This document shows positions 3,896 to 26,600 of a stretch of 64,000 nucleotides of DNA, piece by piece. Both the position numbers and the translations under genes were made by a program. The DNA comes from a virus. Location of the stretch: the IMG/VR virus record IMGVR_UViG_3300026290_000001, one strand, 5' to 3'. Each line of letters begins with the position of its first letter. Position 1 is the stretch's first letter. A model generated the notes under the pieces. The model searched no databases. It was not told the origin of the DNA and saw nothing but the letters and a program-made list of their open reading frames with translations.

Positions 3896-4192
3896 TTAAA
3901 TACTAGGAATATTGTCATTATCATCCAAAGTATTTATATCATTTATATTATTACTATAATCAGGTTTATCAGGCCAAGTATTATGTTTACTTAAATTTTC
4001 AAATAATGATTTTACACAATAAATTAATGTCACTCCGATTATTTGAATGACGATTTTTTCTGAAAGATTTTCAGCAATTTGTTCTCTTCCTAGAAAGGCC
4101 AATAAATAAGAAAGATAAACCCAAATTACGCTGTTAATCATTAATAAATAAACTATTCTTTTGCTAAATTCATCTATGTTAAATATTTTCAT
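3896..4192 (-). CDS. small membrane protein (lysis cassette associated)
   Basis: 98 aa with hydrophobic segments; position in lysis cluster. Confidence 0.3.
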   Translation of the reverse strand: MKIFNIDEFSKRIVYLLMINSVIWVYLSYLLAFLGREQIAENLSEKIVIQIIGVTLIYCVKSLFENLSKHNTWPDKPDYSNNINDINTLDDNDNIPSI

Positions 4193-4203
4193 AACTCACC
4201 TTC

Positions 4204-4428
4204 TCACAAACGTATTTGTTGATGACAACTTGGACAATGTTCAATAGGTGAAGCAGGATAAGTTATTATATAATAAATAACCCATAAAATTACTAATAAC
4301 CAAAACAATGGAGAACGAATAATAGTTGATAATATATTCCAAACTAAAAACAAGATACCTTGAATAAAAGATGTAGTTATATCTGTTATGTTATTAAAAA
4401 ATATATCTACTTTGTTTTTATATTTCAT
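4204..4428 (-). CDS. small membrane protein
   Basis: 74 aa, strongly hydrophobic core, C-terminal CPSC motif. Confidence 0.3.
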   Translation of the reverse strand: MKYKNKVDIFFNNITDITTSFIQGILFLVWNILSTIIRSPLFWLLVILWVIYYIITYPASPIEHCPSCHQQIRL

Positions 4429-4435
4429 AATCTAC

Positions 4436-5017
4436 CTACTTTAAAACCATACTTATCACTGCACCAAATCCCATAGACATTGCAATTATAAATAAATTCT
4501 TTAAAATATCTGATAATTTTATTTTATTATCACCACTTACTTCATCAATCTTCTTGCTTAATTTCTCCACACTAACTTCTGTACTGTTCATTCTATTGCT
4601 TAGTACGTCTAATGAATTACTGATCTTCGCTTGATTTTCACTAATTTCAGCAATCAATTTATCTCTTTTAATTCCGTCTTCTCTCTGTAATTTTGTGAGC
4701 AATTGGAGTTCGGACAAAACACTTGTAATATCATATATTTTGTTTGTTTGGCTTTCCAAATCATCTATACGGTGATTTGCCACCTTTATTTTTTCATCAA
4801 CATTCTTAAATACTTCGGCACAAATTTTTGGTTGTTCACATTCTTGATTTATGACCAATTCACAACACCATCCAATCTTTGTATTCATTCCTCCTTTGCG
4901 GTATAATGGGTACAAGGTAATTAATTTGACCGCAAAATTAATTACCATAACGAATAAGGCAGGATACCTATTTTTATCCTGCCTTATTTTTATTTTATTA
5001 AATTTAAAAAATCTCAA
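4436..5017 (-). CDS. XhlA-like coiled-coil membrane protein (lysis associated)
   Basis: 193 aa; central coiled-coil-like region and C-terminal TM helix (LFIIAMSMGFGAVISMVL) as in hemolysin XhlA-type phage lysis proteins. Confidence 0.4.
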   Translation of the reverse strand: MRFFKFNKIKIRQDKNRYPALFVMVINFAVKLITLYPLYRKGGMNTKIGWCCELVINQECEQPKICAEVFKNVDEKIKVANHRIDDLESQTNKIYDITSVLSELQLLTKLQREDGIKRDKLIAEISENQAKISNSLDVLSNRMNSTEVSVEKLSKKIDEVSGDNKIKLSDILKNLFIIAMSMGFGAVISMVLK

Positions 5018-5034
5018 AAAATCATTTTTAAGAA

Positions 5035-5049
5035 TCCCAATATATAGGG
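5035..5049. repeat. 15-bp motif ATCCCAATATATAGG, copy 2; forms hairpin ATCCC-AATATATA-GGGAT
   Basis: Exact match to 2447-2461; lies just downstream of the recombinase gene 5113-6117. Confidence 0.4.
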
Positions 5050-5112
5050 ATTTCTAAACCCGAAAATTTGAACCAAATTAAAGATTTGTTATGATACAAA
5101 ATAAAAACATAA

Positions 5113-6117
5113 TTATTGATAGAAATATTGAGTATAACTTTGTTGCTTGTGTTCAAACGTTTGTTTTGCGTAAATGCCCGTAGTTTGAATATCATCATGA
5201 CCTAAAAGTTCTTGTAATACCGACATTGGACAACCGTTATTTAGCATCAAGGTTGCGAAAGTATGTCTGAGCATATGGGGATGAGTTCTCTTGTCAAGCC
5301 CTGCACGTTTACCTATTGCTGCTATTTCTCGTTGAATACCTCGATTGCTTAATCTTCTATATTCCTGCCGTTCTGTTACAAATAATGCTTCACAGTCATC
5401 CTTACGACTTTCAAGATATTTTTTAAGGTAAATTGCAGCTCTAGCAGAATAGAATACAATTCGCTCTTTGTTTCCTTTGCCTAATACCTTAATCGTCCGA
5501 TTTGATTGTCCTATATCATCTTTATTTAGTGCCGATATTTCAGATAATCGACAACCTGTTGAATACATAATTTCAGTTAATGCTTTTTCTCGCAAAGTGA
5601 AACAACTTTCACGGAATAGTTCCAATTCTTCAATTGTTAATGCCTTTGCCATTGCTTTTCCCACTTTATAAGGTTTAATTCTAATCATCGGATTTTCTTC
5701 AATAATCTGTTCCTCACAAAGCCATTCAAAGAAACTGCGAAGTACTGAGCGAATTGTCTCAACAGTACTTTTAGCATTTACTGTTGGGTCGCTTTCCCGA
5801 TCATCCAGATAGTTAATTATGTCCTGCTTGGTTATTTCATTTACTGGTTTTTCTTCGGTTCTATCGGTAAATATTTTAAGATGAAGTCGATAATTATCAA
5901 TAGTTATTGGACTTAATCCTTGCCGTTTTTTATCCTTCAAAAACAGTTTTATGTTTTTCCGCAAATTATAATATTCTGGATCGCTGTTTTGTTTTATAAC
6001 TCTGTATTCATCAAGAATGGAGGCTAATTGATTTTTAGCCTCCATCTTATTCATGCCTTTTTCTATGATTCCATCTACAATTTTAGCATATAGCTCATAA
6101 TTGAGATTAGGGTGCAT
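5113..6117 (-). CDS. tyrosine recombinase (XerC/XerD-like integrase family)
   Basis: C-terminal catalytic motifs ...GCRLSEISAL..., HPHMLRHTFATLML, LGHDDIQTTGIYA; N-terminal SAM-like core-binding domain. Confidence 0.8.
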   Translation of the reverse strand: MHPNLNYELYAKIVDGIIEKGMNKMEAKNQLASILDEYRVIKQNSDPEYYNLRKNIKLFLKDKKRQGLSPITIDNYRLHLKIFTDRTEEKPVNEITKQDIINYLDDRESDPTVNAKSTVETIRSVLRSFFEWLCEEQIIEENPMIRIKPYKVGKAMAKALTIEELELFRESCFTLREKALTEIMYSTGCRLSEISALNKDDIGQSNRTIKVLGKGNKERIVFYSARAAIYLKKYLESRKDDCEALFVTERQEYRRLSNRGIQREIAAIGKRAGLDKRTHPHMLRHTFATLMLNNGCPMSVLQELLGHDDIQTTGIYAKQTFEHKQQSYTQYFYQ

Positions 6118-6691: not shown

Positions 6692-7843
6692 TTAAAAATA
6701 CACGAGGCGAGCGCCGATAACCGAATACTTTTCAGACTCCGAATAACCCACATGCAGCCGAAACGCCCCCGCCTTATCCGCAGCCGACCAATCACCACCG
6801 AAACGCGGCAAGCGCGAAACATTCAGAACCGCGGAATCGGGATAATGCGTGCTTTCGCTTCCGTTTGCTGTTTTGACGATAAAACCCGTTTCCGTACCAC
6901 CTTGTATGTCGTCTATGTAACCGACTATATTCGTTGTCGCACCCTGTCCGTAATTTGTATATCCAGAACCAATATCGTTAAAACTTTCATTGCCGATTAG
7001 GATGTTTCGGTCTGCATCACTAAATAATCCGTCAATCCAATAGTAAATATTACCCCAAAAATCTTCTATGCCACAAAATTTTAATTGTTGTTTTCCTGTA
7101 GTTTCACCATAGAACATACCTTTAGCATTTGTAGCACCCGTATTAACTTTGGCACTATTCCCATCGACATAACCTCTGCCTAAAGCAGTTTGCCAATCCC
7201 TACTCTTAAACATCACCGTACCTAAGACTTGCAACATTAAAAGTTGAAAATAAGCCATTTGGTCATAACCACTGCCATTCGCCTGTGCAATAGTTCTAAA
7301 TGCACCGATAGTTTCATAAGCGGTTGTTATTTTTCCGCTTAAACTTCTTAATTTAGAACCGTCAGAATATCCTAAATAAGCTGAAATGTAACACTTGGCT
7401 TTTTCGGTTGTACCCCTCATATGTGCTAAACATTTATACCCACTATCTACCTTTGCATTAGCATATCTTACATACAAGTCAGTCCCAATGGTTTCAAATT
7501 TCCACCAAATCTTAGGAAATTCAATCATTACGTCACCATCTGCACCACTTGTAATGTCTGCATTTGTCCCGTCAATTTTTTTAGTATAATCGTTTGGATT
7601 TAGATAGTATTGCACCACTCCATTTTTAAGTAAACATGGTTTAATCTGATTAAATGGAAACTTGTCTTGCCAACTACCATAAGAAAAATTGCCATTATTT
7701 CCTTGGGCTGGAGTAAAACCTATTGCATTATCTGTATAGGCTAAAGCAGTTTCGGGGTTGCTATTTGTAGTATCAATTTTGATGCCATATATTTTAGGTG
7801 GTGATTTTACTGGTTTTCTTTTCCTAATTAATGCCTCACCCAT
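6692..7843 (-). CDS. tail fibre protein, distal part; 3' third is GC-rich
   Basis: 383 aa, Gly/Asn/Thr-rich, contiguous with upstream fibre ORF; 3' segment about 6700-6960 has markedly higher GC than the genome. Confidence 0.5.
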   Translation of the reverse strand: MGEALIRKRKPVKSPPKIYGIKIDTTNSNPETALAYTDNAIGFTPAQGNNGNFSYGSWQDKFPFNQIKPCLLKNGVVQYYLNPNDYTKKIDGTNADITSGADGDVMIEFPKIWWKFETIGTDLYVRYANAKVDSGYKCLAHMRGTTEKAKCYISAYLGYSDGSKLRSLSGKITTAYETIGAFRTIAQANGSGYDQMAYFQLLMLQVLGTVMFKSRDWQTALGRGYVDGNSAKVNTGATNAKGMFYGETTGKQQLKFCGIEDFWGNIYYWIDGLFSDADRNILIGNESFNDIGSGYTNYGQGATTNIVGYIDDIQGGTETGFIVKTANGSESTHYPDSAVLNVSRLPRFGGDWSAADKAGAFRLHVGYSESEKYSVIGARLVYF

Positions 7844-8686
7844 TTACCTCACCACCTTTAGCTGAATTGGCAAACTAACTTCAGGTTTATCCATCGCATA
7901 TAATGTTATAGAATTATTAGCAGTTGTTACACGATAAATTTTACCCCACTCATTTACTCGTTCTTTATCTGTAGCAAATGTGCCACTCATTACTACGTCA
8001 ACTATAGGATTGTCATTTGACGATATTCCAGTTACCGTTTGCGTTTTCGTATATGGGGCTTCTGTACCTGTCCAAGTAGTATCAAGTGTTGTCGTAAGCG
8101 TAGCGTGATATACGTGTCCTAATTTACTTATTGTCGCACCATCTGCCAGATGGTTAGCAAACTTTTTCCCAACCCCACTAACCAAAGGTCTTTTATCGAC
8201 AATTATATTTACAGTTTTATCCGCATTTGTACTAATAGTACCAATTAATAGACTTCCATCTGTAATTGTTCCATCTATACTACTAGCAAAATTTCCATCA
8301 TTTTTAAGATATATAGTATAGGTTATACTGGCCGATACTGGATTAATAGTAAAAGTTGTATCAGATGTTTTAGTTATAGTATTTATTGTATTTCCACTAA
8401 ATGTTTCACCAGTACCACTAGCAATAACTATACTTAATGTATCTGTACCACTCGTATAAAATGCAGATTTTATTCTAAATGGACTATCCAATTCTAATGA
8501 ATTTAATAAAAATCTCGCATCTTTCCATGTTGCTCCTAAATCTCTAGGATCAGTACCACCTAAAGTAACATTTGCATCATCAGCAACATGGATAATATCT
8601 AAACCACTATATTTATTTCTAATTTCTGCTACTTGCTCATCTGTATGTATAGCAAATACTTTGCTATTTTTAATTACACAAATCAT
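7844..8686 (-). CDS. tail fibre protein (shares a module with 8706-10469)
   Basis: Segment TFTINPVSASITYTIYLKNDGNF...LLIGTISTNADKTVNIIVDKRPLVSGVG is paralogous to a region of the upstream gene. Confidence 0.5.
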   Translation of the reverse strand: MICVIKNSKVFAIHTDEQVAEIRNKYSGLDIIHVADDANVTLGGTDPRDLGATWKDARFLLNSLELDSPFRIKSAFYTSGTDTLSIVIASGTGETFSGNTINTITKTSDTTFTINPVSASITYTIYLKNDGNFASSIDGTITDGSLLIGTISTNADKTVNIIVDKRPLVSGVGKKFANHLADGATISKLGHVYHATLTTTLDTTWTGTEAPYTKTQTVTGISSNDNPIVDVVMSGTFATDKERVNEWGKIYRVTTANNSITLYAMDKPEVSLPIQLKVVR

Positions 8687-8705
8687 AAATTTATATCTCC
8701 CTCCT

Positions 8706-10469
8706 TTACACTATTATCCATGAACCTTTATTTCCCTCAGAATTAGGTTCAGGAGAGAAAATAGGACTGCCACTATAATTAGAACAACGTACATATCCAT
8801 TGTTATATGCAAATATATCAATTAAACCTGCATCACCAACATTAGAATTTGAAGCAAATAAAGAACCTTCTTCACAACAATCTATATTGTATTCCACATT
8901 GTTTTTTGCAATAATTCCCGAACTAAATCCTTTTCCACCATTATTAACTGTTAATCCTGATTTATTTCCACAAACACATATATTTTCTGCCATCATACCC
9001 CCACCAGTAGAATCATAAGCACCTTTTTCAGAATTACCATTTGCTATACAATTATTTATATAAATCCCTGCGAAATTGGAACATTCATAACCATTTTCAT
9101 TATTGGAAGATGCTGTATATGGTGCAGTAATACCTGCTCTGTTAGTTACAAAAAAACCAGATTTAAAACCAGATACTCCAACATTTGTACCACAAGTTAT
9201 GCTTGCGCCTGTTGTTGATAATATTCCATAATTAGTACTAGCATTAGAACCAATAATTGCAACATTATTTAATAATCCTAATTCAGAACGGTCAGCAACA
9301 ATACCATTACAATTTGTAAATTTTAACGTTGTAGTTAAAACAACAAAATCTCCACCCGTTAATGCAACAGCAGGGAATGGAGTACCTTGAAAAGTATTTT
9401 TAACCGTTACTACGTTTCCATTTATATTTATAATTTCATACATTCCACGTAAAACTTCATGATTACCTGTGCCTGTAGTATTTTTTATAATAGCATATTG
9501 TCCTACTTGCATACCTACTGCACTAGCAACTGTTATAGGTACAGACCAATTTCCAGCAGTATCAGAAACACTACCTACGTTTGAAACGGTTGTGGCAATA
9601 GGAGTAGCACCAATTATTCTTATATTAGAACCATTAACATGATTTATTTTAAGTTGAGAAGTATGTTCATACATTTCTGTTAATAAAGAAATAGTTACAG
9701 TAGTTGAACTAGTTATACTAGCAGTTTTTATACTATCTAAAGCATTTGGTATTGTAGTAAAATCACATCCAGTAGAGCCAACAGTTATAGTTTTATTGGC
9801 ATCTATAATAGTATCTGTTAAATGTTTAATAAATTCACTACCTACAGCACTAACTAAAGGTCTTTTATCAGTAATTGTATTTATAGATTTATCTGCATTG
9901 GTACTAATTGTTCCTATTAAAATACTTCCATTTGGAATACTACCATTTGTACTTTTATCAAAATTACCATCATTCTTTAAATAAATATTATAGGTCACGC
10001 TAGCACTTACTGGATTAATATTAAAAGTAGTATCAGATGTTTTTGTAATAGTGTTTAAAGTAGTACTATTAAAACTTTCACCTGAACCCGAAGTAATTAT
10101 TATTGATAAAGTATCTGTTACTGAATTATATTCAGCAGATTTTATCTGAAACGGATACCCATATACATCTTCTACATTACTTTTTAAACTATCATGATCA
10201 TATGCTGTAAATAATCTTCCTATTATCGTTCCATTACTCCATGTCTGTGCTGTCCCTTGAAATCCCCTAGTTACACCAACCAAACTACTACCACTTTTAT
10301 CTGTATATAAAATAGTTTCTGCATTATTACCAGTTCCTATAGTAGCAAGATTAGGTGCATTGGGAAAAACTGAAATATCAGTTACGGGGATGGTAGTTGC
10401 AATACTATTTATATCAGAAGAAAGTGTTGTAAGAGGGGAGTTAATTTTAGCATTATACATTGTTTCCAT
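8706..10469 (-). CDS. tailspike/tail fibre with parallel beta-helix-like C-terminal domain
   Basis: 587 aa; repetitive G/N/S/T-rich segments with spaced Cys/Asn/Gly typical of right-handed beta-helix depolymerases; shared N-terminal module with 7844-8686. Confidence 0.5.
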   Translation of the reverse strand: METMYNAKINSPLTTLSSDINSIATTIPVTDISVFPNAPNLATIGTGNNAETILYTDKSGSSLVGVTRGFQGTAQTWSNGTIIGRLFTAYDHDSLKSNVEDVYGYPFQIKSAEYNSVTDTLSIIITSGSGESFNSTTLNTITKTSDTTFNINPVSASVTYNIYLKNDGNFDKSTNGSIPNGSILIGTISTNADKSINTITDKRPLVSAVGSEFIKHLTDTIIDANKTITVGSTGCDFTTIPNALDSIKTASITSSTTVTISLLTEMYEHTSQLKINHVNGSNIRIIGATPIATTVSNVGSVSDTAGNWSVPITVASAVGMQVGQYAIIKNTTGTGNHEVLRGMYEIININGNVVTVKNTFQGTPFPAVALTGGDFVVLTTTLKFTNCNGIVADRSELGLLNNVAIIGSNASTNYGILSTTGASITCGTNVGVSGFKSGFFVTNRAGITAPYTASSNNENGYECSNFAGIYINNCIANGNSEKGAYDSTGGGMMAENICVCGNKSGLTVNNGGKGFSSGIIAKNNVEYNIDCCEEGSLFASNSNVGDAGLIDIFAYNNGYVRCSNYSGSPIFSPEPNSEGNKGSWIIV

Positions 10470-12435: not shown

Positions 12436-12942
12436 TTATTCTTGATAGACGAACCAAATGTCCCCATCCTCACCGTCTTCATTACTAGGTTGTACAGTAG
12501 AAAATATAAAATGGTGTGCAGAAGTTTGTATTATATCTTCAAGTGTTTCTTTAATATCATAAGAACCACTACCATTAGATTGAAAACTACTATAAATCCT
12601 ACTTGCGGGTATATAAACTCCACCACTACCATAAAAAGAAAATTGTAATATACTTCCACTTACATCAGGATGAAAATAAACGTATCCATATACATAATCT
12701 ACTTTATATGTACCAATTTTACTTTCTGTGTCTAATGTAGGAAAACCATCAACAATTTCATACCACTGGTAAGTTTCCAATCCAAAATTACCCATGACCT
12801 GAACTTTATTTTGCCTATGCGGAATTTCTGATAATATTACTAATCCATTTATTATTTTTTTATATTCACTTAATGAAACTAAAGGTTGCTCATTATTACC
12901 TCTTCGTATTGAAATAAAAGGATCATAAAAAATTTGATTCAA
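12436..12942 (-). CDS. hypothetical protein
   Basis: 168-aa ORF, same strand as structural operon. Confidence 0.3.
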   Translation of the reverse strand: MNQIFYDPFISIRRGNNEQPLVSLSEYKKIINGLVILSEIPHRQNKVQVMGNFGLETYQWYEIVDGFPTLDTESKIGTYKVDYVYGYVYFHPDVSGSILQFSFYGSGGVYIPASRIYSSFQSNGSGSYDIKETLEDIIQTSAHHFIFSTVQPSNEDGEDGDIWFVYQE

Positions 12943-13104
12943 AATTTATCACCTCCAACCTAATTTTTCAAAAAATAGAAAAATCAAAAATGTTCAAAAA
13001 TTTATCTTCTGTTTTCTCTTGTTTTCTTCCATTTACTCTGTTTTTCAAGCACAAAATTTGAATAAAAGGAATATTTTATTGTTGAGCCAAGAACACTCGT
13101 GACT

Positions 13105-14397
13105 TCAGTCATGAGATGAATTGGCTCTGTTCTGTTCATATATAATCCATGATTTTCTTGCATTAATTCTTTGCATGTTAGATATTTTCGGTGTCTTCAT
13201 ACCTCTGGGTGCATTACTAAAATCTATTTTTTCACCATCTATACCCATAAGAATGGCATAACCCGTAGACATTCTACCTTTAATAAAATATTCATTACCT
13301 ATATACCTTACTTTATCAAACTTCCTAAATCCTTCTATTTTACCTGTAGGTATCTTCTGATGACTTCTTACTCCTTTTGCCTGTTGGTAATCGCCTTTAG
13401 GGATACACTTTTTTAATACAGCTTTTTCAGTTTTAAAGCTTACATCAATTAACCCTATATCTTCAATATTATTTAAACAGGCAATAGCTACAGCATCGTA
13501 GTAATGCTCTTTTGGTAATCCCATTAGCTGTCTATGTTCTTTGGTAATAAATCCAAAGGTTTCTTTTGCATTTGGTAGCTGTCTTAATAATTGTTGTCTT
13601 ATACTATTCATCTGTGTTGTGTGTTTTAATTGTCCTTTAATTTTACCATTCTTCTTTAATTTAATTCCTCCTTTGTGCAAACTATTATGACAAGTTTTAC
13701 AAAGTGTAATTAAATTTTCTGCATCATCTGAGCCACCATTTTTTCTAAAAACTATATGATGTACCTCTAATCTGCTGTCTTTACTTTTTCCTTTGCAATA
13801 CTGGCAAATATATTTATCTCTACTTAATACATAAGCTTTAGTATTAGCAAATCCATAATTAGTTCCTTTTTGATAAAGCCATTTATTACTTAATACTGCT
13901 GGATTTTTTAAAGCATGTGGGTCAAATGTTGCTGTTTCTATTATTATATTTGTAATGGGCATTATTGATTTTGCAAAATCAATTTCTTTTAAGTGTGAAT
14001 TAATTTTACTTGTCATTGTAGGAGAAAATCTATCTTTTTTAATGCTGTTTTTCCTATTATTAAATCTAGGTTCCCTATATCTAGTTTTCCTATTCCTTCT
14101 AGTTCTCCTATATTTAGCTCTTTTGTCCATTTTGTCAGATATATCATTTCTAATTTCTACTTCTGATATATAATACACTTCATTTTCGTCATTTGCTACT
14201 GCACTTCCTATTTTACTACTACCAGTATCAATTCCTAAAGTTAAATCTTGTGTATAGTCTGTAGCATGATATAGTAATTTAATTGTAAATGGAGTTCTTC
14301 TTATGCATTTTGCTTTACCATCTTTTAACAATAATCTTGCTATTGCTGGTTTACAAGGCATTAAAGGACTCCCATCTTCATTAATTACATAAACCAT
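13105..14397 (-). CDS. iscB: IscB, OMEGA-family RNA-guided nuclease (PLMP domain, split RuvC, HNH)
   Basis: N-terminus VYVINEDGSPLMPCKPAIARLLLKDGKAKCIRRTPFTIKL (PLMP domain); RuvC-I LGIDTGSSKIGSAV; Arg-rich bridge helix RRTRRNRKTRYREPRFNNRK; RuvC-II ETATFD; HNH CQYCKGKS...LEVHHIVFRKNGGSDDAENLITLCKTCHNSLH; RuvC-III HYYDAVAIA; domain order exactly as in described IscB proteins. Confidence 0.85.
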   Translation of the reverse strand: MVYVINEDGSPLMPCKPAIARLLLKDGKAKCIRRTPFTIKLLYHATDYTQDLTLGIDTGSSKIGSAVANDENEVYYISEVEIRNDISDKMDKRAKYRRTRRNRKTRYREPRFNNRKNSIKKDRFSPTMTSKINSHLKEIDFAKSIMPITNIIIETATFDPHALKNPAVLSNKWLYQKGTNYGFANTKAYVLSRDKYICQYCKGKSKDSRLEVHHIVFRKNGGSDDAENLITLCKTCHNSLHKGGIKLKKNGKIKGQLKHTTQMNSIRQQLLRQLPNAKETFGFITKEHRQLMGLPKEHYYDAVAIACLNNIEDIGLIDVSFKTEKAVLKKCIPKGDYQQAKGVRSHQKIPTGKIEGFRKFDKVRYIGNEYFIKGRMSTGYAILMGIDGEKIDFSNAPRGMKTPKISNMQRINARKSWIIYEQNRANSSHD

Positions 14398-14681
14398 AAA
14401 ATCAAATCCTTTCGGATAAATACTCTGCTTAAAAGCAGGTTATGCGTATCTATATACTATTACCATATATAGAATTCGTCCTCATCTCGACAATGATAAA
14501 ATAGCTTATATGTATATCACACCGAGCCTTACCCTCCAACTCTACTTAGTGATATACGATAGAGCAATGGTCTGATGCGTCAACCAAAGGTATCATAACT
14601 ATTCTATCGTAGTATAAATTTCTCTATACTAAGTCTGGTGAACTTAGACTTTAGAAGCCTCCGACTTTAGTCGGGGGTAGT
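14398..14681 (-). ncRNA. candidate omega RNA of IscB (structured 5' region; guide expected at the high-coordinate end)
   Basis: 284-bp non-coding gap directly upstream of iscB with higher GC than surroundings and several stems readable by eye (CCTCCGACT/AGTCGGGGG, TACGATAGAG/CTATTCTATCGTA, AGTCT..AGACT, CTGCTT..AAGCAG). Confidence 0.45.
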
Positions 14682-14927
14682 TCACTCTATTTCAGGATTG
14701 ATAGATAAATCATCTTTGCTTGTACTATTTACATTAGATAAATTATCTTCATTGGACAAATCATCATTAATAATTTGACTTAATTCGTCTATTTTAGAAC
14801 TTAATTTGATAATCTCTATCTGATACATATTATTTTGTAAACATAAAGTGACTACATCTAAGGGCAAATTACTATTGTTTATTAACTCTGCCAGTTTAAT
14901 ATTAAAATCACTTATAATAAAAATCAC
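14682..14927 (-). CDS. hypothetical protein
   Basis: 81-aa ORF upstream of IscB locus. Confidence 0.25.
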   Translation of the reverse strand: MIFIISDFNIKLAELINNSNLPLDVVTLCLQNNMYQIEIIKLSSKIDELSQIINDDLSNEDNLSNVNSTSKDDLSINPEIE

Positions 14928-14984
14928 TTCCTTTATATTATTTTTTTATCTTATTATATTGTTATTTTTTATCTTACTATCTTG

Positions 14985-15305
14985 CTATATTGTTATCTGC
15001 GCTTTTATTTCAATCCTACAAGTGTTATTAAAAATATCTTTGTTAATATTTATTACTTTTCCATCTAATAATCTATTTATCTCATTTTCGTATTTATCAA
15101 TAAAAACCACATCGATTTTATTATCTAGATTTAATTCTAAAAAACTACAAACATCTGAACTTTTATTTGTTGGGATTTGCCCTATAAATCTGTGATAATA
15201 AATATTTTCCATTTCATGATAATAAACATCTAAAGTTCCTTGTTGAAAATCGTCTGAATAGATATGGTTGTCTAGGCAATTAAATTTTATTTTTAATTTC
15301 ATCAC
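14985..15305 (-). CDS. hypothetical protein
   Basis: 106-aa ORF. Confidence 0.3.
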   Translation of the reverse strand: MMKLKIKFNCLDNHIYSDDFQQGTLDVYYHEMENIYYHRFIGQIPTNKSSDVCSFLELNLDNKIDVVFIDKYENEINRLLDGKVININKDIFNNTCRIEIKAQITI

Positions 15306-16391: not shown

Positions 16392-16991
16392 ATGAAAGGA
16401 TGTATAATAATGAAAATTAAAAACTTATCTTATCTGTTTATTGGTTTGCTAGTTGGGTGTTTATTTCCCATTCAATCTTTATTTGCCGAACAACCTATTA
16501 CATTAATTATCAATGGTAAAACAATTACTAATGCTTCACCACAAATAGTTTCAGATAGAACGTATGTACCTTTGAGGGTAATATCCGAAGAATTAGGTGC
16601 AACAGTTGAATGGGACGGAGTAAATAGGGTAGTTAGGGTTAATAGTGGGGATGGACAAAAAATTGAAAAGATTAATCAAAATCAAACTCAAAACAATAAT
16701 GATAATAGTAATGTGGAGAGCAACCCTAGAGATAATATCAATTATATTAGTAGTGATGATATGGAAAAATATTACGAAAGAGATACAAATAAAGGTTTTG
16801 TAAAAAATCGTTGGGTAGATGGTAAATATTTTATTGACTATGATAGAAAAATTACACGTTTTGAAGATTATGAATATTATTATGATAGAGAAAGAGATAT
16901 ATTTTATTGGGCAGATTATAAGGCAATTTTAATCTTTGGAGAAACAATAAAAGATTATCCTAAATATAAATTTAACCAAATACAGCAGTAG
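16392..16991 (+). CDS. secreted lipoprotein with copper-amine-oxidase-N-terminal-like domain (moron, opposite strand); true start probably 16410
   Basis: Signal peptide with lipobox LLVGC; motif DRTYVPLRVISEELGATVEWDGVNRVVRV typical of Cu_amine_oxidN1 domains of Firmicutes; only plus-strand gene within minus-strand tail operon. Confidence 0.55.
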   Translation: MKGCIIMKIKNLSYLFIGLLVGCLFPIQSLFAEQPITLIINGKTITNASPQIVSDRTYVPLRVISEELGATVEWDGVNRVVRVNSGDGQKIEKINQNQTQNNNDNSNVESNPRDNINYISSDDMEKYYERDTNKGFVKNRWVDGKYFIDYDRKITRFEDYEYYYDRERDIFYWADYKAILIFGETIKDYPKYKFNQIQQ

Positions 16992-19845
16992 AAGAAATAG
17001 CATCTCCTTCAACTAAAACTCTTTTTGCTCCATACCAACTACTACCAACATAAACTTCATCACCTAATAAAACTTGATTAGCACTTATTTGTAAATGTGG
17101 ATAAGTAGAACCACCTGCTGAAATAATAACATTATGACCAGAAGTAGTGTACATTAAAATTTCTTTATTACTACTATTTTTTCCACCTATTTGCAAAGAA
17201 TTAAATGCAGTAAAATCTCCAGCAGTTATTTGATTAGCATATATTTTACCAGTAATAACATAATCTTTTCCTAATTGTGTAGTTAAGGCAGTATTAGTAA
17301 CATAGTTTGCTAAATCACCAGAATATACTAAATCTGTTGGTTTATCTATCACTTTGCCCCATGCTATATAAGCATTCGGACCCATTTGAATATTGTCACC
17401 AACAATTAACTCATTAACTTTTAGTTTATTTGCACCAACACTACCATTGGACAAATAATTACCATTGATTTTATTTAAAGAATCCAATACATTAGTACCT
17501 GCAATTTTTAAACTCGAACAATCTATATTACCTTGAATATCTGCTGATGTTGCCACTAAGTGACCTGAAAGGGAAACCCTGAAGGGTGCATAATTATAGT
17601 TACTACTACCTAAATATATTCCATTCGTGTCGGCTTTAAATATGGCATTACCCGATCCTATCTGCATATGTCCTTTTAATATTAAATTACCATCAATGTC
17701 AGCATATAATTTTTTGTTCCATTGAGAACCTTCATATTTTTCAATAGTGAATCCATCTGTTGCGTTAGATATGGAACGTACTTTATTGTCTGAACGGGTA
17801 ATTGTTAGTCCATCTGTTATATCTATTTTTACACCATTATAGAGTTTATTTTCTAAGAGTACTCCTTCTGCTAATTCTGAAACTGGTAATCCACCATCCG
17901 TTATTTGTAGGGAAAGACCTGAAATTTTTACTCCCGTTTCATTGACGGTGAAGAATTTTTTACCTTCGTTGTTTGATGCGTCTATTATGAGGTTTTGACC
18001 AATTAATAAAGTACCTAAAATTCTTTCTGCTACAATCCGATCTGGCAAAATCGCAGTATGAAATGTATTACCTCCATCTTGGGTAAGAGTAATTACACCA
18101 TGCATCATACGAATAAATTTATCAGAATCGTTCGGATCTATAATACTGATGCCTCTTCTATCAGTAATTACCGTCTCATTACCACAAGCAATTACTGCTT
18201 GTTTAGTAGCATCCCATGCATTATTTATAATTTTCTGTACTTCATTATTAGCATTTTCACCCAATGACCATTTATATTTTTCCATATCAACAGTAGTAGA
18301 TGTGCTCACTGCTTGATTTATTCTCTTTAAAAACAAATCATAATCACGATTAATATTTTCAATATTACTAATTACAAGATTGACACTATTTTCTTCAAAA
18401 TCAAAATCCATTTCAATAATTTTTGCCATAATGCTAATATCAAAAGTTTCATGGTCAATTCTAACCAAATCACCTAAAATCAATTTACCTTTATCTAATT
18501 GACAATCTTCATCTAAATATTGATCAATATTTATCGAATCTATCTCTATTAATATTTGTGGTGTATTTATTTTTACAAACTGTTCTTTACCCCAAGATAA
18601 TAATTCTTTAGCATCAAAGATGTATTGATTTTCAACAGTTTTTACAACTATATAATCAGTAAGTTCAAATAATTCAGATTGAGTAAAATTACTTTCCATA
18701 CGCAATGTGTCACCAAGAGAAATTATATTAGATTGTACAGAATTTATTTGTGATTGTTTATTACTAATTTCAGTGTTTTTATTATTTATTTCATTTTGTT
18801 TGGCAGATTGTTGTGCTAATAAATCATAAGCACTTTGACCCTTAGATTGTGCCAAATCTATATTGTCTTGAATTATTATTAATTCAGATTGTAGTGTAAT
18901 TAATTGACTATTTAAAATTATTAGTTCTGCTTCATATGTTTCTAATTGAGATAAATAACCTTGATATATACCATCATTATCTTGTAATTTTTTATTATAA
19001 GCCAATAAAGCATGACATAATTCATTGGACATATAATGACTACTTTGAATTACATTGCCTTGCTCATCTTCTGTATATGGATAAAGAAAATATCCAAAGT
19101 TATCTAAATAGTCAGTACCAGTTATATTGTATTCATTTATACTTAATCCCGATTTGCCATAAATTTTTAAACGAGTGCAAAAATCTGAATCATCCAAAGA
19201 TTGATTTAGTGATTTCAAATAGATACCATAATTAAAATTTAAACCAGTGTAGTTTCCGATTTGGTCTAATTTATAAAAACTTATCTTTTTATTTTCAGTA
19301 TCCCATTTAATAATTGCACTAAATGTTTCTGAAACTGTAAATATTGCATCTAGTACCGTAGCAGAAGTAATTTCTAACATGCGAAATTTAGTGTCGAACT
19401 CTGAATTCACGTACCCCAAAGACCATGTAGTTTCCTTTAACAAATCGGTCATTATTTGTGATAATGTTTTGGATTCAACTTTATATCCTCTAATTAAATT
19501 ATCTTTTAATTTAAAGGGGAGAGAAAAACATTCCACTTGAAACGAATCTATATCTTCACCCATATTTTGAATTGGTTTTTGTATAATAAACCATTCAATT
19601 TTATTATTATATTCAAATTTTATTAGGTATTTATAACGAATCATATTAAGATGTTTGTTATAAACTAATTCGTTCTCTATTTCAATATATAAAGGAAGAT
19701 CAAACGATAATTCTGAAATATTACCAAGTTTACAGTTATATTGTATATTAAATGCCTGATTAGATAAATCTGCAATAATATTTCTATCAGGTTTTGTAAG
19801 ATATAGTTTTGGTTTTTGTAGTAAGTCTATTATAAATATCACCAC
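16972..19845 (-). CDS. tail-associated lysin/minor structural protein (Tal-like)
   Basis: 957 aa, directly downstream of Dit-like gene after tape measure; central coiled-coil and C-terminal repetitive beta-rich region. Confidence 0.55.
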   Translation of the reverse strand: MVIFIIDLLQKPKLYLTKPDRNIIADLSNQAFNIQYNCKLGNISELSFDLPLYIEIENELVYNKHLNMIRYKYLIKFEYNNKIEWFIIQKPIQNMGEDIDSFQVECFSLPFKLKDNLIRGYKVESKTLSQIMTDLLKETTWSLGYVNSEFDTKFRMLEITSATVLDAIFTVSETFSAIIKWDTENKKISFYKLDQIGNYTGLNFNYGIYLKSLNQSLDDSDFCTRLKIYGKSGLSINEYNITGTDYLDNFGYFLYPYTEDEQGNVIQSSHYMSNELCHALLAYNKKLQDNDGIYQGYLSQLETYEAELIILNSQLITLQSELIIIQDNIDLAQSKGQSAYDLLAQQSAKQNEINNKNTEISNKQSQINSVQSNIISLGDTLRMESNFTQSELFELTDYIVVKTVENQYIFDAKELLSWGKEQFVKINTPQILIEIDSINIDQYLDEDCQLDKGKLILGDLVRIDHETFDISIMAKIIEMDFDFEENSVNLVISNIENINRDYDLFLKRINQAVSTSTTVDMEKYKWSLGENANNEVQKIINNAWDATKQAVIACGNETVITDRRGISIIDPNDSDKFIRMMHGVITLTQDGGNTFHTAILPDRIVAERILGTLLIGQNLIIDASNNEGKKFFTVNETGVKISGLSLQITDGGLPVSELAEGVLLENKLYNGVKIDITDGLTITRSDNKVRSISNATDGFTIEKYEGSQWNKKLYADIDGNLILKGHMQIGSGNAIFKADTNGIYLGSSNYNYAPFRVSLSGHLVATSADIQGNIDCSSLKIAGTNVLDSLNKINGNYLSNGSVGANKLKVNELIVGDNIQMGPNAYIAWGKVIDKPTDLVYSGDLANYVTNTALTTQLGKDYVITGKIYANQITAGDFTAFNSLQIGGKNSSNKEILMYTTSGHNVIISAGGSTYPHLQISANQVLLGDEVYVGSSWYGAKRVLVEGDAISSTAVFG

Positions 19846-19864: not shown

Positions 19865-20638
19865 CTAATAAAATCTGAATTCATATTTCATGTCCAAAAA
19901 ACACTTGCCATCAACCTTTAGTCTATTTTTACCATAAGGCAAACTCATATAATAATTATTTATAAGTTTGTCATATCTATAAATAGGTGGAGGTGTGCTT
20001 TCTAACGAACTTTCTATATTTCTTCTCTTACAATCGATTTGTACAATTTCATTATCTTCTAATTCTGAAAATCCAAATTCTTTACCGTTAGATAAATTTA
20101 AAATAGATACTTTACCTTTTTCTAGTTTTTTAATTGTTATTATAGGTAAAACATCCACATCTCCTAAATTATTAAATACAAAATGATTAGTACTTTCTTT
20201 GCTAAAATCATAAGATTCTAAATAGATATGCGAATGTGCATAAGAACTCTTACATCTAAATTGACAAGTTATATAACCTTGATTTATACCATTATGAGAT
20301 ATTTGTGGATCAGAAATTAAAATACAATAATAAATTTTATCAGGATTTTCCGAAAAACGCATTTTAGCATAATATGGTTTTCTTAACCATCGTTTAACCC
20401 TTTGTAAAGATTCTTCCGTCCATCCCTTTTTAAAAGCAAAAACTAAATCCAGTATTAAAGGTTTTGGTTTAACTTCTTGAAAATAAGGTTCATTTCTACC
20501 ACGTATTTCAGTTTCAATTATTTCTACTTCTGCTACAAAAGGTTCTTCTGTCATTCCAGAAGAAAGATTACAATTTATAATATCGTAATCATATGAATAT
20601 TCATTATCAAATTCAAAATACGCAGAATCTTTTATCAT
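19865..20638 (-). CDS. distal tail protein (Dit-like)
   Basis: 257 aa, position between tape measure and Tal, conserved order in siphoviruses. Confidence 0.45.
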   Translation of the reverse strand: MIKDSAYFEFDNEYSYDYDIINCNLSSGMTEEPFVAEVEIIETEIRGRNEPYFQEVKPKPLILDLVFAFKKGWTEESLQRVKRWLRKPYYAKMRFSENPDKIYYCILISDPQISHNGINQGYITCQFRCKSSYAHSHIYLESYDFSKESTNHFVFNNLGDVDVLPIITIKKLEKGKVSILNLSNGKEFGFSELEDNEIVQIDCKRRNIESSLESTPPPIYRYDKLINNYYMSLPYGKNRLKVDGKCFLDMKYEFRFY

Positions 20639-20654
20639 TGCTGTTCACCACCTT

Positions 20655-20687
20655 AAAACAAAACAGAAGGGGAGTAGATACCCCTTC
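20655..20687 (-). terminator. intrinsic terminator-like hairpin after tape measure gene
   Basis: GC-rich stem GAAGGGG..CCCCTTC followed on minus strand by TGTTTTGTTTT. Confidence 0.45.
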
Positions 20688-23600
20688 TATTTACCAAGTT
20701 TACTCATTCCATTATTTATCCGTTTAAAGAAACCATCAACACCTTTTTCTGTGTTTTCTACTTTATCTATATGAACATTCATATTATAAGTTACGTTACC
20801 TCCACCAGCAAACTGTAATTGTGGAGTTGCATTGGCAATTAATTTTTGCATATTAGGAATTAGATATCTTTCAATATTTTTTGGTGGAATTAAAATTTCA
20901 TTTGTTAGTGCTTTGATTATATGTTCATTGGCACTGGTATTGAAAAATTTATTAAATTTATCAACAAAACCAAATGATTTATCTCCGACTATACCACCTT
21001 CATGATATATCCTAATTTGTCTTTTCTTTTCATCCCATTCTACTTGATGACCTAATGCTTCTGCAACTTCCCTGATAGAAAGATATGTTGTTCCGTCAAC
21101 ATTTTTAGCTGGTTTAAATCTCTTTCCACCAATTATAATTGTCTGGTTTTGTCCATAACCTTCCCAATCAGCAGATGCTCCTAAAAGTGATGCAAGAAGT
21201 CTAGATTGCATAATTGCTCTATTATTGACAAGTTCAAAAGAACCAGAATCCAATACTGCCATAGGTTGTCTACCAGATGTGTTAGAACTAGGATTAGTAC
21301 TTTCCAAAGAGGGAATAGACATATTCGCACTATTTGCACTTTCTAATAATGCTAATGCCTGTTCCATTTTTGTAATTAAATTAGCACTAATACTATTACC
21401 AATAAACTCTAAATTGCCATTTACAAAAGTTTTAAATTCTGCAAAAGCTGATTTAACTTTATCAATATTACCATTTATAATATCAGAACGAATTTGGGCA
21501 AACTTTTGTTCGTCATTAATTAAATCGTCATAGTGTTTTTCGGTTTCTCTTTTAATTCTATCCAACCTATCTTTTTCTAAGTTAAGTTTAGTATCTTCTG
21601 CTTTTTTCTTTGCATCAATATCTTTTTTATAAGCATCTAATTGGTCTTTAAGATTTTCTTTACGTAAATCAATTGAATGGTCATGTTGATATTCATTAAT
21701 TTCATCCTCTTGTTCTGCCAATTGTTTTATTAATTCTGCTTTTTTTGCTTTTGCTTCAAAAGAATCATCTAATGATAAAACGTCAATATTTTTTTGAGTT
21801 TCTAATATTGCTTTTTGTTTCTTTTCCAATTCACGATTATAATCATGCTCATTTTCTTCTCTATCTAGTGCTTTGATTCGTGCATTGATGTAATCTTCAA
21901 ATTGTTTTAATTCATCATCAAGATTATCAGTTGCTTGTTTATGACGTTTTTCTTCTGCTTTCATTTGTTCATCTATGGCATCTAATGCAACTTGTTTTTG
22001 TTTTTCATAGATATTTTTATAGATAGAGATGATTTCGTCTGCTATGGATGCTAGTTGTTGTTTGATAGAGAATTGGAGATTGATATATTCTTGCTTTAGT
22101 TGTTTTAAAGTATTTATCAATTCTTGTTTTTGGTCAGCATTGTATCTATCACTTGCTAATTCCTGTTGAACTAATGCTATTTTATTTCTTAAAATATTAA
22201 CACTTTCAATATTAATTTGATTTTCTCGTTCTAATAATGCAATATATTCAGCAGACCCTTTTTCTAATAAAGACATTTCATTTCTAAGGTTTTCTTTTTC
22301 TTGAGTTAAATCAGATAGTTTAATATCTTCAATTGATAAATTAATTTTAAATTCAGCAAAACTCAAATCTCTTATTTCATCATCTATACCTTGAATTTCT
22401 TTTTTAAGACCTTCTGCACTATCTTTGAGTTTTTTAAAATCTTCAATCGCTTTTGCAATTTTTTCATTCTTTATATCAACTTCAATTGTATCTGTTGAAC
22501 CAGACATTATTTTGTTAAAGTCAGATTCAGACAACCCTTTTCCAATATAAGACCGTAGATTCTGTTCTGCTTGTTTTAGACTTGAATCAAAAGTGTTATT
22601 TATATCTAAAAGCAGGTTTTGTTTTTTTTGTAATAAAAGTATCATTTGGTCATATATTTCTGTTTTTTGTTCAAAAGAAGTTACATCGTCAAGTTGATCT
22701 TTAAAAGTTTCTATTTCTCTGTTAATTGCTTCGAGTGCTTCTTTCCAAACTTCAAAGGTTTTGGTAAAGGATTTGGAGGATTTAGAGGAAGAACCATATC
22801 TATCTAAAGAACTAGATACATTAAGATTTTTAAACTTAGATGCCATATCTCTAGTGGCTTTTTGAAATTCAGCATAATCTTTAAGCATCTGGTTTGTTTT
22901 AGAATCAACAGCTAAAGCACTACCGCTTTCAATACGTCTAAAATCACCCATACTCGAAGGATTTACTAATAGCGTACCTGCATTAAAAGCATCAAAATAT
23001 TTCGCCCATTCAGAACCTAATTTGCTTATTAATTGCAATTCAATTGCTTCTCTTGCTTGAGCTAAATTTGCCCATTGAGTTACATTATTGCCATATAATT
23101 TTGATAAATGATTAAATAATTCAGCATGGTTATTTTTAACACTGTTATAGAAATTAATATCTTGTTCTTTAGTTTTTATAAAGGCATCATAAATTGCATT
23201 TTGGTAATCTTCTGTGTCTTTGACAAGTTGTTGTCTTAATTTGGACTCATCTTCAAGTAGAGGAATATAATCTTGATAATCAGATATTATTTTTTCTATT
23301 GAAGATTGAGTAAGACCTTTGTCAGATAATTCATCAAGAAAACCTTTTAGGTCTTTTATTTTAGATACATTGTCTTTGTAAGTGGTTTGAAAATCGGAGA
23401 GAGCTTTTTCATATTGATTTAAAGTATTAATCGCATTTTTTGAATCAATAGTAGAAGGATATAGTGATGCAAAATTAATAGCAAATTCTTTTAAATCGGG
23501 ATTACCTTTAGTTAATGTATTAATTAAATTAGTTATTTCCTTAGATGTTTTTGATAATCCATCTCTATTTTTCTTAGAATCATCGCCACTATTAATAGCA

Positions 23601-26600
23601 GAAGTTAATTTATTATATTGTTCAATTAAAGAATCTAAATCAGAATTAGCAACTTTAGTAGCAAAATCACTTAATGCTTGTTGTTGAGTTTCTATATCTT
23701 CGGGTTGTAAAGCAAGTGATTTAGCAAATTCGGAAACAACTAATTTGGCAGAATCAGACATTTCCTTACCATTAGATTCTAAAGTTTTAATGGTTTCTTG
23801 CGCTTCGTATTCTAAATATTTTTGTTTGTTTTTAGAAAGATTATATATTTCTTCTTGTTGTCTTTGATATATATCTTTCCAATCTTCTAATTTTCTGAGG
23901 TTATACCATTCAGTTCCTTTATTATTATCAATCATTAATTGATATTCTTCTATACGTTTTTCTGCGGTGTCTCTGAGGTTAATTGCTTTTTTAATTTCTT
24001 TATTAGTTTGTTTATCTGATGCTTTAACTTTAAATTCTAATAATTCCTGTTCTTTTTTTAATTCTTCATCTAAAGCCAAAATTCTTAGTTTAATTACTTC
24101 TATAGAATCAGAATAAGCTTCTCCTTCAAGATTAATACCAGTAGCAGATACACCATATTTATCAACAAGTTCTTTTTGAATTTCTAATAATCGTTTCTTT
24201 TCTTCGGTAGTTGCGGTAAGATTTTTCTCTTTATCTTTAAGAGTTTCATATTCAGAAGTTAATTCTTTTAACCCCTCTTTTTGTTGTTTTAAATTTTGTA
24301 TTTGATTTTGACTTGTTTCTATTTGTTTTTGTTGTTCTTCTCTATGTTTTTTAGTAGCATTAGTGAGTCCATAAATAGCAACCATTGCAGTTGTTGCAAC
24401 AACTGCCAATAATCCTAATGGATTTGTTGCCATCGTTGCTTTTAAAAAATTCATTGCAGCAGTAAGTCCTTGTGTTGTTGTCAATAATGCTAAAAGGGAA
24501 ATATTGGCAGCATTAGTAGTAGTAATGAATGCGATCATTGCTTTTATACTAGAAGTAATAGCAGTTCCTTTCCAAATTAAAAAAGCCGTAGTTAAAAGTG
24601 CTACAACAACTTCTGCATTTCCAAGAACTTCAACTAAAGTTGTCATAGCAATTACAAAACCTTTAATTACGTCAGAATTTAATGCTTCTTGCCATTTCCC
24701 CATTACTGTGTTTTTGAATTGTGCAGATTTTGCCTCAATTGATTCCATATACTTTTCGTTTTCAATTAAAGCAGAATTTGTCGAATTTAAGGCAGTAGTT
24801 AGAGAGTCCTGCATATCCTTGTAATTAGTCATCATAGCCATTACTATGTTTCCTTGTCTTTTTCCTGCGACAAGTTCCGACATATTAGCCCTCTGTACGT
24901 CTGTAAGTTTTTCCCAAACTAAGGCTAATTCTAACATAATGTCATAGGTGGATTTAAAGGTATTTTCATCTTTGCGAATTTGAATACCAATATTTTTAAA
25001 TGATTCTTCAAGTTTAGGAAGATATTCTAAAACATCTTCACCATCTTCGGATACACCTCTAAGTCTCATTGAAATTGTTTTGAGGGCTGTTCCTACGGTT
25101 GCTGGGTCTTGTACCACTGCGTTAGCAGCAGTTATCAATGCAACTGCTTCTTCCATTGTATTGCCAGCAGAATATAATGAAGCAGCAGATCTACGCATAG
25201 CTTCACCAATACCTGCACTTGAAATTGCAAAATTATTTCCAACTTCATTATAAATATCTACAATTTTCTGTATATTTCTACCTTCTTCATCTACTGCAAC
25301 ACCAAAACCTTTTACTGCTGAAATAATTGCTAGACTAGCTTCTTCTACTCCAATATCACCTACATTAGAATATAATAATGCTTGTTTTGCTAATTGAGCA
25401 GATTGTTCAAGGGAATAACCCAAACGGGCAAACTCTGTCGTACTATTAATAACTTCCACACTAGTTTTTGCCAAATTTCGACCTATAGCATTTGCCTCAA
25501 GTGAAAATTTATTTAATGTTTCTCTAGTTTCGTCAGTAACTTTATTCAAATTTGTGAGAGCAGTATCTATGTCGATGATACTTTGAATACCATTTTTTAC
25601 TGCTGTTATTGTTTTGATTATTACATCACCGATGAGCAACCAACTAGCGAATTTCTTGCCCGCTTCAAGTAAACTTTGTCCAAAAAGTCCAGTATATTTA
25701 TTAGCATCTTGAATTTCTTTCTTATAAATACTTGTGGTAGTAGAAATTTCTCTAAGTTTAGAATTGGCTTCTGCCATATTCTTACTGAAATTTTTATTAG
25801 TTGGATCAAAACCACGTATTTGAGATTCAAGAGTATTTAAAGCACTTAAATTATCACCAACAATAAACTTTCCATCTACACCTCTCATGCCCCTGATTCT
25901 ATTTAATAAATCTTGTTGAGCAAGAGATTGTTTATGTATTTCACTTGTTAACTTTTGCTGTTGAATAATATCTTTATCAATATTTTTTGCTTTTATTGTA
26001 CCAACATTCCGTAATGTTTGTTCTCTAATTTTTTCAAGTTGAATTAATTTTTCAGCTTCTATTCCTTCTATTTTGGTTTTTTCACCAATGTCAATTTTTC
26101 TTCTAATAATATTATTATATTGACCTTGATGATAGGTTATTTGTTTAGTTAATTCTTTTGCCTGTTCTGTATCTTTATTTCCTAAACTATGATAATCTTG
26201 TCTTAATTTATTTAATTGTGTTAAATGCTGTTTGGCTTCATTAAAATTTTTATTTTGTGTATTTTTAATAGTTTCTAAATTAGTTTTTTCAAGATTATCA
26301 TAATAATCTGCCATTTTAACCAGTTCATCTGGTTTCTTTGTCATATCACCTACAGTTTCTTTAACTCTCTGTGACCAATATTTGGACTGTTCTTTATTTA
26401 ATTTTTCTAACTCTGTACGTTGTTTTTTATAATTAATAGTAGTTTCTGTTACTTTTTTATATACTTCGTCTGTTCCTGCTTTTAAATGTTCAATTTGTTT
26501 TACACTCTCACCATTTGCTTTTGTCCACTCTTTAGTTCTTTCAGTAATTTTTGCTTCAGCATTTTCAATTTGTACATATTTTTCTTTATACTTGTCTAAA

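Follow-up and report, generated by a model that had tools for sequence, protein, structure and literature searches.

The window analysed here is the whole 64,000-nucleotide (nt) stretch of virus record IMGVR_UViG_3300026290_000001 from IMG/VR. Its positions 13080-14685, on the minus strand, very probably constitute a non-autonomous insertion sequence (IS) of the IS200/IS605 family that carries the RNA-guided nuclease gene iscB together with its omega RNA and is inserted in the tail/baseplate module of an SPbeta-like phage of ~135 kb. To judge from sequence comparison, the element is apparently active and hitch-hiking, not co-opted by the phage, and it appears to have entered this phage fairly recently. 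The features of the element, delimited by its right end (RE) and left end (LE), are as follows.

13080-14685, minus strand: whole mobile element, 1606 bp, delimited by other copies and by empty sites, with RE at 14685 and LE at 13080
13105-14397, minus strand: iscB coding sequence, the 430-amino-acid open reading frame (ORF) in the ORF list of the window, assigned by family profiles
14475-14685, minus strand: omega RNA scaffold (HEARO), a full-model match to RF02033
14398-14474, minus strand: predicted 3′ extension of the omega RNA region to the iscB start, with the iscB ribosome-binding site, from the predicted fold
14686-14701, minus strand: predicted 16-nt guide TCAATCCTGAAATAGA, directly 5′ of the HEARO scaffold
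14658-14677, minus strand: RE subterminal hairpin CCCCCGACTAAAGTCGGAGG, with an 8-position stem, one mismatch and the loop TAAA
13096-13115, minus strand: LE subterminal hairpin CTCATGACTGAAGTCACGAG, with an 8-position stem, one mismatch and the loop TGAA
13074-13079, minus strand: target motif and predicted target-adjacent motif (TAM) ATAAAA, outside the element; TTTAT(T) on the opposite strand, 5′ of LE

The IscB protein

A first-pass annotation had described the 430-amino-acid protein as an IscB whose domains are all present in the expected order and whose catalytic residues look intact, and profile, structure-database and RNA-family searches bear this out. Searches for the IscB/PLMP and HNH profiles gave significant matches: the Pfam family RRXRR (PF14239, the PLMP or N-terminal IscB domain) covers residues 2-178 over the full profile (E = 2.2e-54), the Pfam HNH domain covers residues 198-242 (E = 3.6e-14), and the NCBIfam equivalog NF040563, guided_IscB, scores 351.4 bits against a cut-off of 175 bits. 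The protein runs from RRXRR/PLMP through RuvC-I, an arginine-rich bridge helix, RuvC-II, HNH, and RuvC-III to a C-terminal domain of ~120 amino acids, with the HNH domain sitting between RuvC-II and RuvC-III of the split RuvC fold. The arginine-rich stretch, RAKYRRTRRNRKTRYREPRFNNRK at residues 93-116, was read straight from the IscB sequence.

The nearest solved structures by sequence are those of OgeuIscB (7utn, 7xht, and 8csz; E ~1e-43). Residues D57 (in GIDTG), E154 (in IIETATFD), and H213 (in EVHHIVF) align to OgeuIscB D61, E193, and H247, and H298 and D301 (both in EHYYDA) align to H340 and D343, the chain numbering of 7utn-type entries being the native numbering minus one; these five OgeuIscB residues are the ones we take to be catalytic. 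Among 45 homologues that are 71-95% identical to the IscB of the window, the acidic and histidine residues of RuvC motifs I, II, and III (D57, E154, H298, and D301) are invariant in 45/45, and neither H213/H214 nor the zinc cysteines of the HNH domain (C198, C201, C233, and C236) show any variation. All five catalytic columns are occupied, as the earlier reading had supposed. The ratio of nonsynonymous to synonymous substitution rates (dN/dS) of iscB is 0.10-0.20 in comparisons with five other copies, and by this measure the gene is under purifying selection.

At a limit of E <= 1e-20, this IscB has over 7,500 matching proteins in the database, the best 120 of them being 70-100% identical, and six further copies with 72-90% protein identity are found in viral contigs. 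On these sequence criteria, the gene is a real and intact IscB RNA-guided nuclease gene accompanied by a guide RNA, and nuclease activity is predicted for its product.

The omega RNA and its guide

The Rfam family HEARO (RF02033) matches positions 14685-14475 on the minus strand with 121.7 bits (gathering score 83 bits) over model positions 1-211 of 211, and fills most of the 285-nt gap upstream of the iscB ORF on the same strand. The 304-nt omega RNA region folds more stably than its shuffled versions (z = -3.3). According to Meers et al. (bioRxiv 10.1101/2023.03.14.532601), the RF02033 model leaves out structures that lie farther downstream in the omega RNA. In the predicted fold, the 3′ extension contains two extra hairpins, one at ~14470-14448 and a terminator-like one at 14438-14425 that is followed by a T-rich run. 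The first-pass annotation did not name this upstream RNA explicitly; the interval it gave for the nuclease, 13105-14700, nonetheless takes in all but one of the 16 bases of the predicted guide, together with the RNA scaffold and the gene.

The predicted guide TCAATCCTGAAATAGA is flanking phage DNA, namely the final codons of an upstream gene of 81 amino acids; its length of 16 nt is our assumption, by analogy with OgeuIscB. The sequence at the guide position differs in every copy of the element, and within the window the guide matches its own flank only. A repeat search found no CRISPR array in the window, and a retargeted guide was considered and rejected, the guide being the element's own insertion flank.

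An AT-rich tandem repeat at 14933-14998 (a 23-nt unit in ~2.9 copies) lies between a 106-amino-acid gene and the 81-amino-acid gene, directly upstream of the gene whose 3′ end gives the guide. This repeat might serve as promoter or regulatory DNA for transcription that enters the omega RNA.

Ends of the element and target motif

The two ends are built alike. The RE hairpin doubles as the first stem-loop of the omega RNA, being paired in the HEARO alignment, and the LE hairpin holds the iscB stop codon TGA (13107-13105) within its loop; both hairpins have a GAC-TNAA-GTC core, and no terminal inverted repeats were found in the element. Five other copies all begin with GTGAACTACC, corresponding to position 14685 and to HEARO position 1, after unrelated flanks. 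A common start after differing upstream sequence is what would be seen if the upstream bases acted as a guide copied from each insertion site. At the distal end, the copies show the hairpin CTCATGACT-RA-AGTCACGAG, from which a short tail of variable sequence leads to ATAAA.

ATAAA follows LE in 45 of 48 distinct copies, at an offset of 8-10 in 42, compared with 11 of 48 in a control stretch. The ATAAAA of the window agrees with the TAM of OgeuIscB, which is NWRRNA according to PMC12660989. In DNA comparisons, the window and the loci L007-L012, L042, and L070-L072 have the element in common and nothing of its flanks, and copies at 72-96% nucleotide identity occur in many unrelated contexts.

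Empty sites in sister phages

The position of the insertion is framed by two phage genes on the same strand as the element.

14682-14927, minus strand: upstream phage gene of 81 amino acids, in the same orientation as iscB, from the ORF list
12436-12942, minus strand: downstream phage gene of 168 amino acids, YomF_N (Pfam PF27067, phrog_11315), starting 131 nt past the insertion point

A search of related phages for an empty site, which the first-pass annotation had proposed as a way to define the boundaries, was made here through homologues of these two genes and found eleven sister-phage contigs (L067/L068 and L115-L124) in which the site is empty: the 81-amino-acid gene joins the region upstream of the YomF_N gene directly, and the YomF_N gene, longer in L120/L121, follows immediately. 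Flank identity is 84-98% in the nine closest empty loci (L067/068, L115-117, and L122-124), and L118-L121 have only shorter, more diverged flank stretches in common with the window.

The decisive junction is that of L122-L124, from three samples, where ...TCAATCCTGAAATAGA runs directly into ATAAAATATTCC... (in the longer reading, ...CCTATCAATCCTGAAATAGA into ATAAAATATTCC...). Here the left flank of the window is fused straight to its right flank with no bases duplicated or lost; therefore, the element is exactly 14685-13080 (1606 bp), it was inserted without target duplication, and ATAAAA (13079-13074) is part of the target and not of the element. The stop codon TGA of the 81-amino-acid gene (14684-14682) is supplied by bases 2-4 of the element, so that the gene ends in GAG TGA when the site is filled and in GAA TAA in the empty L122-L124, where the TAA overlaps the ATAAA motif. 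Both alleles thus encode glutamate followed by a stop, the length is 81 amino acids in both, and the product is unchanged at the junction. The position in the tail module reflects a tolerated ATAAA site at a stop codon, not a tail-related function.

The guide matches the empty site of L122-L124 at 16 of 16 positions, followed by ATAAAA. The other eight empty contigs have two (L115), five, or six mismatches to the guide; position 13 differs in all mismatched alleles, and the TAM-adjacent position 16 differs in three of five allele classes (L115, L116/117, and L067/068). The motif at the empty sites is ATAAA plus a variable base (ATAAAA in 9 of 11, ATAAAT in L118/L119). These mismatches are compatible with escape from cutting; against such an interpretation, the C-terminal tail of the 81-amino-acid gene is variable anyway, with similar mismatch clusters elsewhere. 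In L067, the 50 nt to the left of the junction hold 17 mismatches where the overall rate is 9%; escape was also considered as the cause of this density and was rejected, similar clusters being found elsewhere in the 2.4-kb alignment and the L067 cluster not being significant.

The exact empty-site pattern had no match in a metagenome contig collection that also misses the phage's own 34-nt right flank; this collection therefore does not hold the phage, and its DNA negatives cannot be read as absence. JGI metagenome contigs with the phage are present in the protein-linked collection. A 17-mer of the left flank gave only chance matches among viral contigs, and a locus search by the two flanking proteins returned the same phage only.

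Proposed mechanism

The published mechanism of the family (Meers et al.; Mears et al.) suggests how such an element could move and persist. A Y1 transposase, TnpA, acting in trans from the host or from a co-resident IS605 element with the same ends, would place the single-stranded element beside TTTAT/ATAAA. The omega RNA would then be transcribed with the upstream late gene, or by read-through from it, and would carry TCAATCCTGAAATAGA as its 5′ 16 nt. The IscB-omega RNA complex would cut genomes in which TCAATCCTGAAATAGA abuts ATAAA, namely genomes from which the element has disappeared and sister phages free of the IS, L122-L124 among them, and recombination with an IS-bearing genome copy would restore or spread the element.

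A possible, on balance doubtful, extension is that IscB acts as an RNA-guided gene drive between phages, converting matching empty-site sisters in mixed infections or in the genome pool, with the other alleles as escape variants. If true, this would be the first natural case of homing by an OMEGA nuclease shaping phage populations. IscB-omega RNA elements, their non-autonomous state, and the homing logic are already published, and carriage by phages is already present in public data.

Alternative explanations

Several observations weigh against an active, mobile element. All 13 contigs with this exact IscB have the same insertion site, and neither excision nor a second insertion was seen within this phage lineage across those contigs. 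Neither TnpA nor TnpB was found within the 64-kb window of the ~135-kb phage: Y1_Tnp is absent among the 21 Pfam families from its 43 further ORFs, and a tblastn search of the window with the TnpA and TnpB of an element that has an end in common with this one reached no better than E = 0.37. The first-pass annotation had likewise seen no such gene nearby; a missing TnpA is ordinary for iscB, because only ~1.5% of iscB genes have one linked (Meers et al., bioRxiv 10.1101/2023.03.14.532601). A promoter scan was uninformative, returning 26 sites against 25 expected. The AlphaFold model of IscB is poor, with a mean predicted local distance difference test (pLDDT) score of 59.6, and residues 308-430 have no sequence match to the TAM-interacting domain of solved IscBs; for these two reasons, the TAM was read from insertion sites only. 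Low AlphaFold confidence can occur in a protein that folds around a large RNA. The comparison with OgeuIscB still came out in favour of the original call, since all ten of the best PDB matches of this low-confidence model are IscB or IsrB complexes (best fold E 2.5e-17 by Foldseek) and the alignments to IscB cover the full length, with a TM-score of only ~0.4 from a model of low confidence.

The first-pass annotation had left the choice between a non-autonomous and a domesticated IscB open, and the former half of that statement stands. Co-option, in which the phage would keep the nuclease for use against IS-free sisters at the tail locus, for instance in anti-defence or exclusion, is improbable. 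It would account for the purifying selection on iscB, for the single fixed site in 13/13 contigs from several samples, for the want of a TnpA in the window, and for the existence of sister phages with a perfect guide match, which are predicted to be cut; the cutting of IS-free relatives is predicted for a selfish element as well, so this last point cannot tell co-option from selfishness. The two transposon ends, however, have stayed intact and are the same as in mobile relatives, near-identical elements (89-96% nucleotide identity) occur in unrelated contexts, sister sites are empty, and the guide is a mere insertion flank, as in any IS of the IS200/IS605 family, with the nuclease not inactivated and neither an array nor a retargeted guide present.

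That the insertion is a dead remnant with no working RNA-protein complex is very improbable. The missing TnpA, the C-terminal domain with no counterpart in sequence among solved TAM-interacting domains, and the low-confidence model would fit a remnant, but the ORF is full-length with all catalytic and zinc residues, dN/dS is low, HEARO matches over its whole model, both ends are intact, and the C-terminal ~120 amino acids are well kept among the 45 homologues. It is hardly credible that the gene encodes a protein-only HNH homing endonuclease of the classical type that phages often carry. The label HNH endonuclease is indeed attached to PHROG families 119 and 2214 and to phage homologues in GenBank; yet this protein begins with RRXRR and has its HNH domain set into a split RuvC fold, it passes the equivalog model for IscB, its best matches in both sequence and fold are complexes of IscB with omega RNA, and a full HEARO RNA lies upstream.

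The element family and its derivatives

A non-autonomous IS200/IS605 element is also what the relatives of the two ends suggest. The LE 24-mer ATGACTRAAGTCACGAGTGTTCTT is found in 38 stretches of bacterial genomes, nearly all from Firmicutes, including Holdemanella, Lachnospiraceae, Eubacterium, and Oceanobacillus, often in several copies per genome. In L101 and L096 the LE hairpin adjoins a Y1 TnpA of 138 amino acids followed by TnpB, which identifies it as the LE of IS605-type elements of the classical kind. The hairpin TGAACCTCCCACGACTAAAGTCGCAGGGTTC, nearly the same as the RE hairpin, lies at the far end of the TnpB-only elements L098, L106, and L108; this related RE came from a hairpin-based search, after a GTGAAC-type RE had been sought at TnpA+TnpB elements and not found. 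Shortened TnpA genes directly follow iscB in L071 and in phage c-st.

Reduced forms of the element, as are typical of families of this sort, also occur. Positions 968-1319 of L056 (IMGVR_UViG_3300027711_000254) are a protein-less derivative in which the omega RNA (HEARO, 117.6 bits, 92% identical to that of the window) is joined to the LE hairpin and then to ATAAAT, with no iscB ORF. In the viral contigs L039/L040 and L045/L046, the first RE bases (GTGAACTACCCTCGACTAA) are joined to the LE hairpin (AGTCACGAGTGTTCTT...ATAAAA), leaving end-fusion scars of 45 nt in L039/L040; judged from their sequence, these short scars look like the result of deletion between the GACTAAAGTC cores common to both end hairpins. 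A phage-like contig of 96 kb with many small ORFs, L072 (ENA ERZ27297473 k141_2675799), holds two HEARO/IscB units (7716-9281 and 12327 onward) and a TnpB (Cas12f1-like_TNB, 4082-5485), so that several OMEGA elements are gathered in one genome.

Phage context

Contigs with this exact IscB reach 138 kb. The Yom-type domains in the window suggest that the phage is SPbeta-like, and no match was returned when the locus was compared with GenBank phages by megablast. Besides portal, holin, and endolysin genes, family annotation identifies the following tail genes in the window.

6692-7843: tail protein
16972-19845: YomG_N/minor tail protein
19865-20638: Dit
20687-26731: tape measure protein, 2014 amino acids

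The first-pass annotation had placed the nuclease between tail fibre genes and tail genes, and the tail module is confirmed. The tail fibre label is not, the ORFs of 405 and 587 amino acids having no family match.

Further features of the window lie away from the element. Three genes for tyrosine recombinases of the phage integrase family are found on the minus strand (5113-6117, 27164-28201, and 59714-60592), one of them between tail and lysis genes and another just upstream of the tape measure gene within the structural module; the oddly placed ones could be invertases or further mobile inserts. The gene at 16392-16991 is the lone plus-strand gene in the minus-strand tail module, overlaps the end of the YomG-like gene, and encodes a signal-peptide-like N-terminus and a Cu_amine_oxidN1 domain (copper amine oxidase N-terminal-like), to which the tape measure protein also has a weak match. 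A tRNA gene lies at 47259-47331 on the minus strand, and the ORFs between 28000 and 60000 include three N6/N4 DNA methylases, a RadC-like JAB protein, a CoiA-like nuclease, and a DUF4379 zinc-finger protein, a large accessory set that is typical of big temperate Firmicutes phages.

Significance

This locus offers a clean natural example of IscB, with the filled allele, a perfectly matching empty allele, and mismatched empty alleles all found in related phages. With filled and empty alleles available, the guide is readable without experiments, as are the TAM (ATAAA) and the exact ends. The locus could serve as a test bed for the question of whether OMEGA nucleases, like TnpB in plasmids, drive themselves through phage populations; the catalogue of IscBs gains a compact protein of 430 amino acids with a predicted AT-rich TAM, and many phage annotations of HNH endonucleases prove to conceal IscB-omega RNA elements. 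The importance of the finding is modest in that it is no new kind of system and nothing ties the element functionally to the tail.

Comparison with known systems

IscB OMEGA nucleases were reportedly characterised by Altae-Tran et al. in 2021. The IscB of the window resembles OgeuIscB and other characterised IscBs (7utn, 7xht, and 8csz) in its domain order and catalytic residues. As with OgeuIscB, its gene is immediately preceded on its own strand by an omega RNA of the HEARO type, with the guide at the 5′ end of the RNA and a target-adjacent motif on the 3′ side. It differs in its size (430 amino acids, as against 496 for OgeuIscB), in being phage-borne, and in having a C-terminal domain that cannot be aligned by sequence and an activity that is predicted; its identity to OgeuIscB, which is moderate, does not extend beyond the first ~310 residues.

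As an element, it is closest in organisation to the ISGst-type IS200/IS605 elements of Geobacillus stearothermophilus (bioRxiv 10.1101/2023.03.14.532601). Meers et al. describe omega RNAs bounded by RE, a TAM equal to the motif 5′ of LE, ends common to IscB, TnpB, and mini-elements, and an orientation that follows the upstream gene (bioRxiv 10.1101/2023.03.14.532601). The element of the window likewise is iscB-only and non-autonomous, has an RE-bounded omega RNA and a TAM that equals the transposase target motif 5′ of LE, lies in the orientation of the upstream gene, and has ends in common with IscB-type, TnpB-type, and protein-less mini-elements. Unlike the ISGst-type elements, it belongs to another sequence family, of AT-rich Firmicutes and phages, this copy is in a phage and not in a chromosome, and no cognate TnpA was identified within the window.

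Among phages, tblastn found IscB homologues in 34 GenBank records. Clostridium phage c-st (CST143), Clostridioides phage pCD1602_4, and Ralstonia phage Claudette (gp57) each have an IscB homologue with a full-length HEARO immediately upstream (140, 124, and 111 bits, respectively), as in the window; in contrast, their protein identity to the present IscB is only 27-42% and their genes are in other genome regions. These genes are annotated as HNH endonuclease or hypothetical, and the PHROG families 119 and 2214, labelled HNH endonuclease, are IscB-like. Within the collection of papers searched, none treats IscB in phages as such, the genes of c-st, pCD1602_4, and Claudette included. In c-st, a RAGATH-18 RNA (64 bits; L073 1179-1239, NC_007581 ~136256-136316) lies beside ISCbt4 transposase genes, ~1 kb upstream of the HEARO/IscB unit.

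TnpB has been described as a gene drive of IS200/605 elements in multicopy plasmids (Mears et al., bioRxiv 10.1101/2025.02.20.638934). In both cases the insertion site is recorded by a nuclease with an RNA guide, which goes on to cut copies that lack the IS, the cutting being predicted for the present element. Phage genomes that replicate as a pool or meet in a mixed infection form a polyploid setting comparable to TnpB-bearing plasmids; the drive by TnpB was shown on plasmids, whereas its extension to IscB in a phage is by analogy only. TldR is another OMEGA-family protein carried by phages (PMC10705468). It is a nuclease-dead, TnpB-like RNA-guided repressor that has lost its transposon ends and has been retargeted to a host promoter (PMC10705468), whereas the IscB of the window keeps its nuclease residues, both ends of its element, and a guide that is its own flank.

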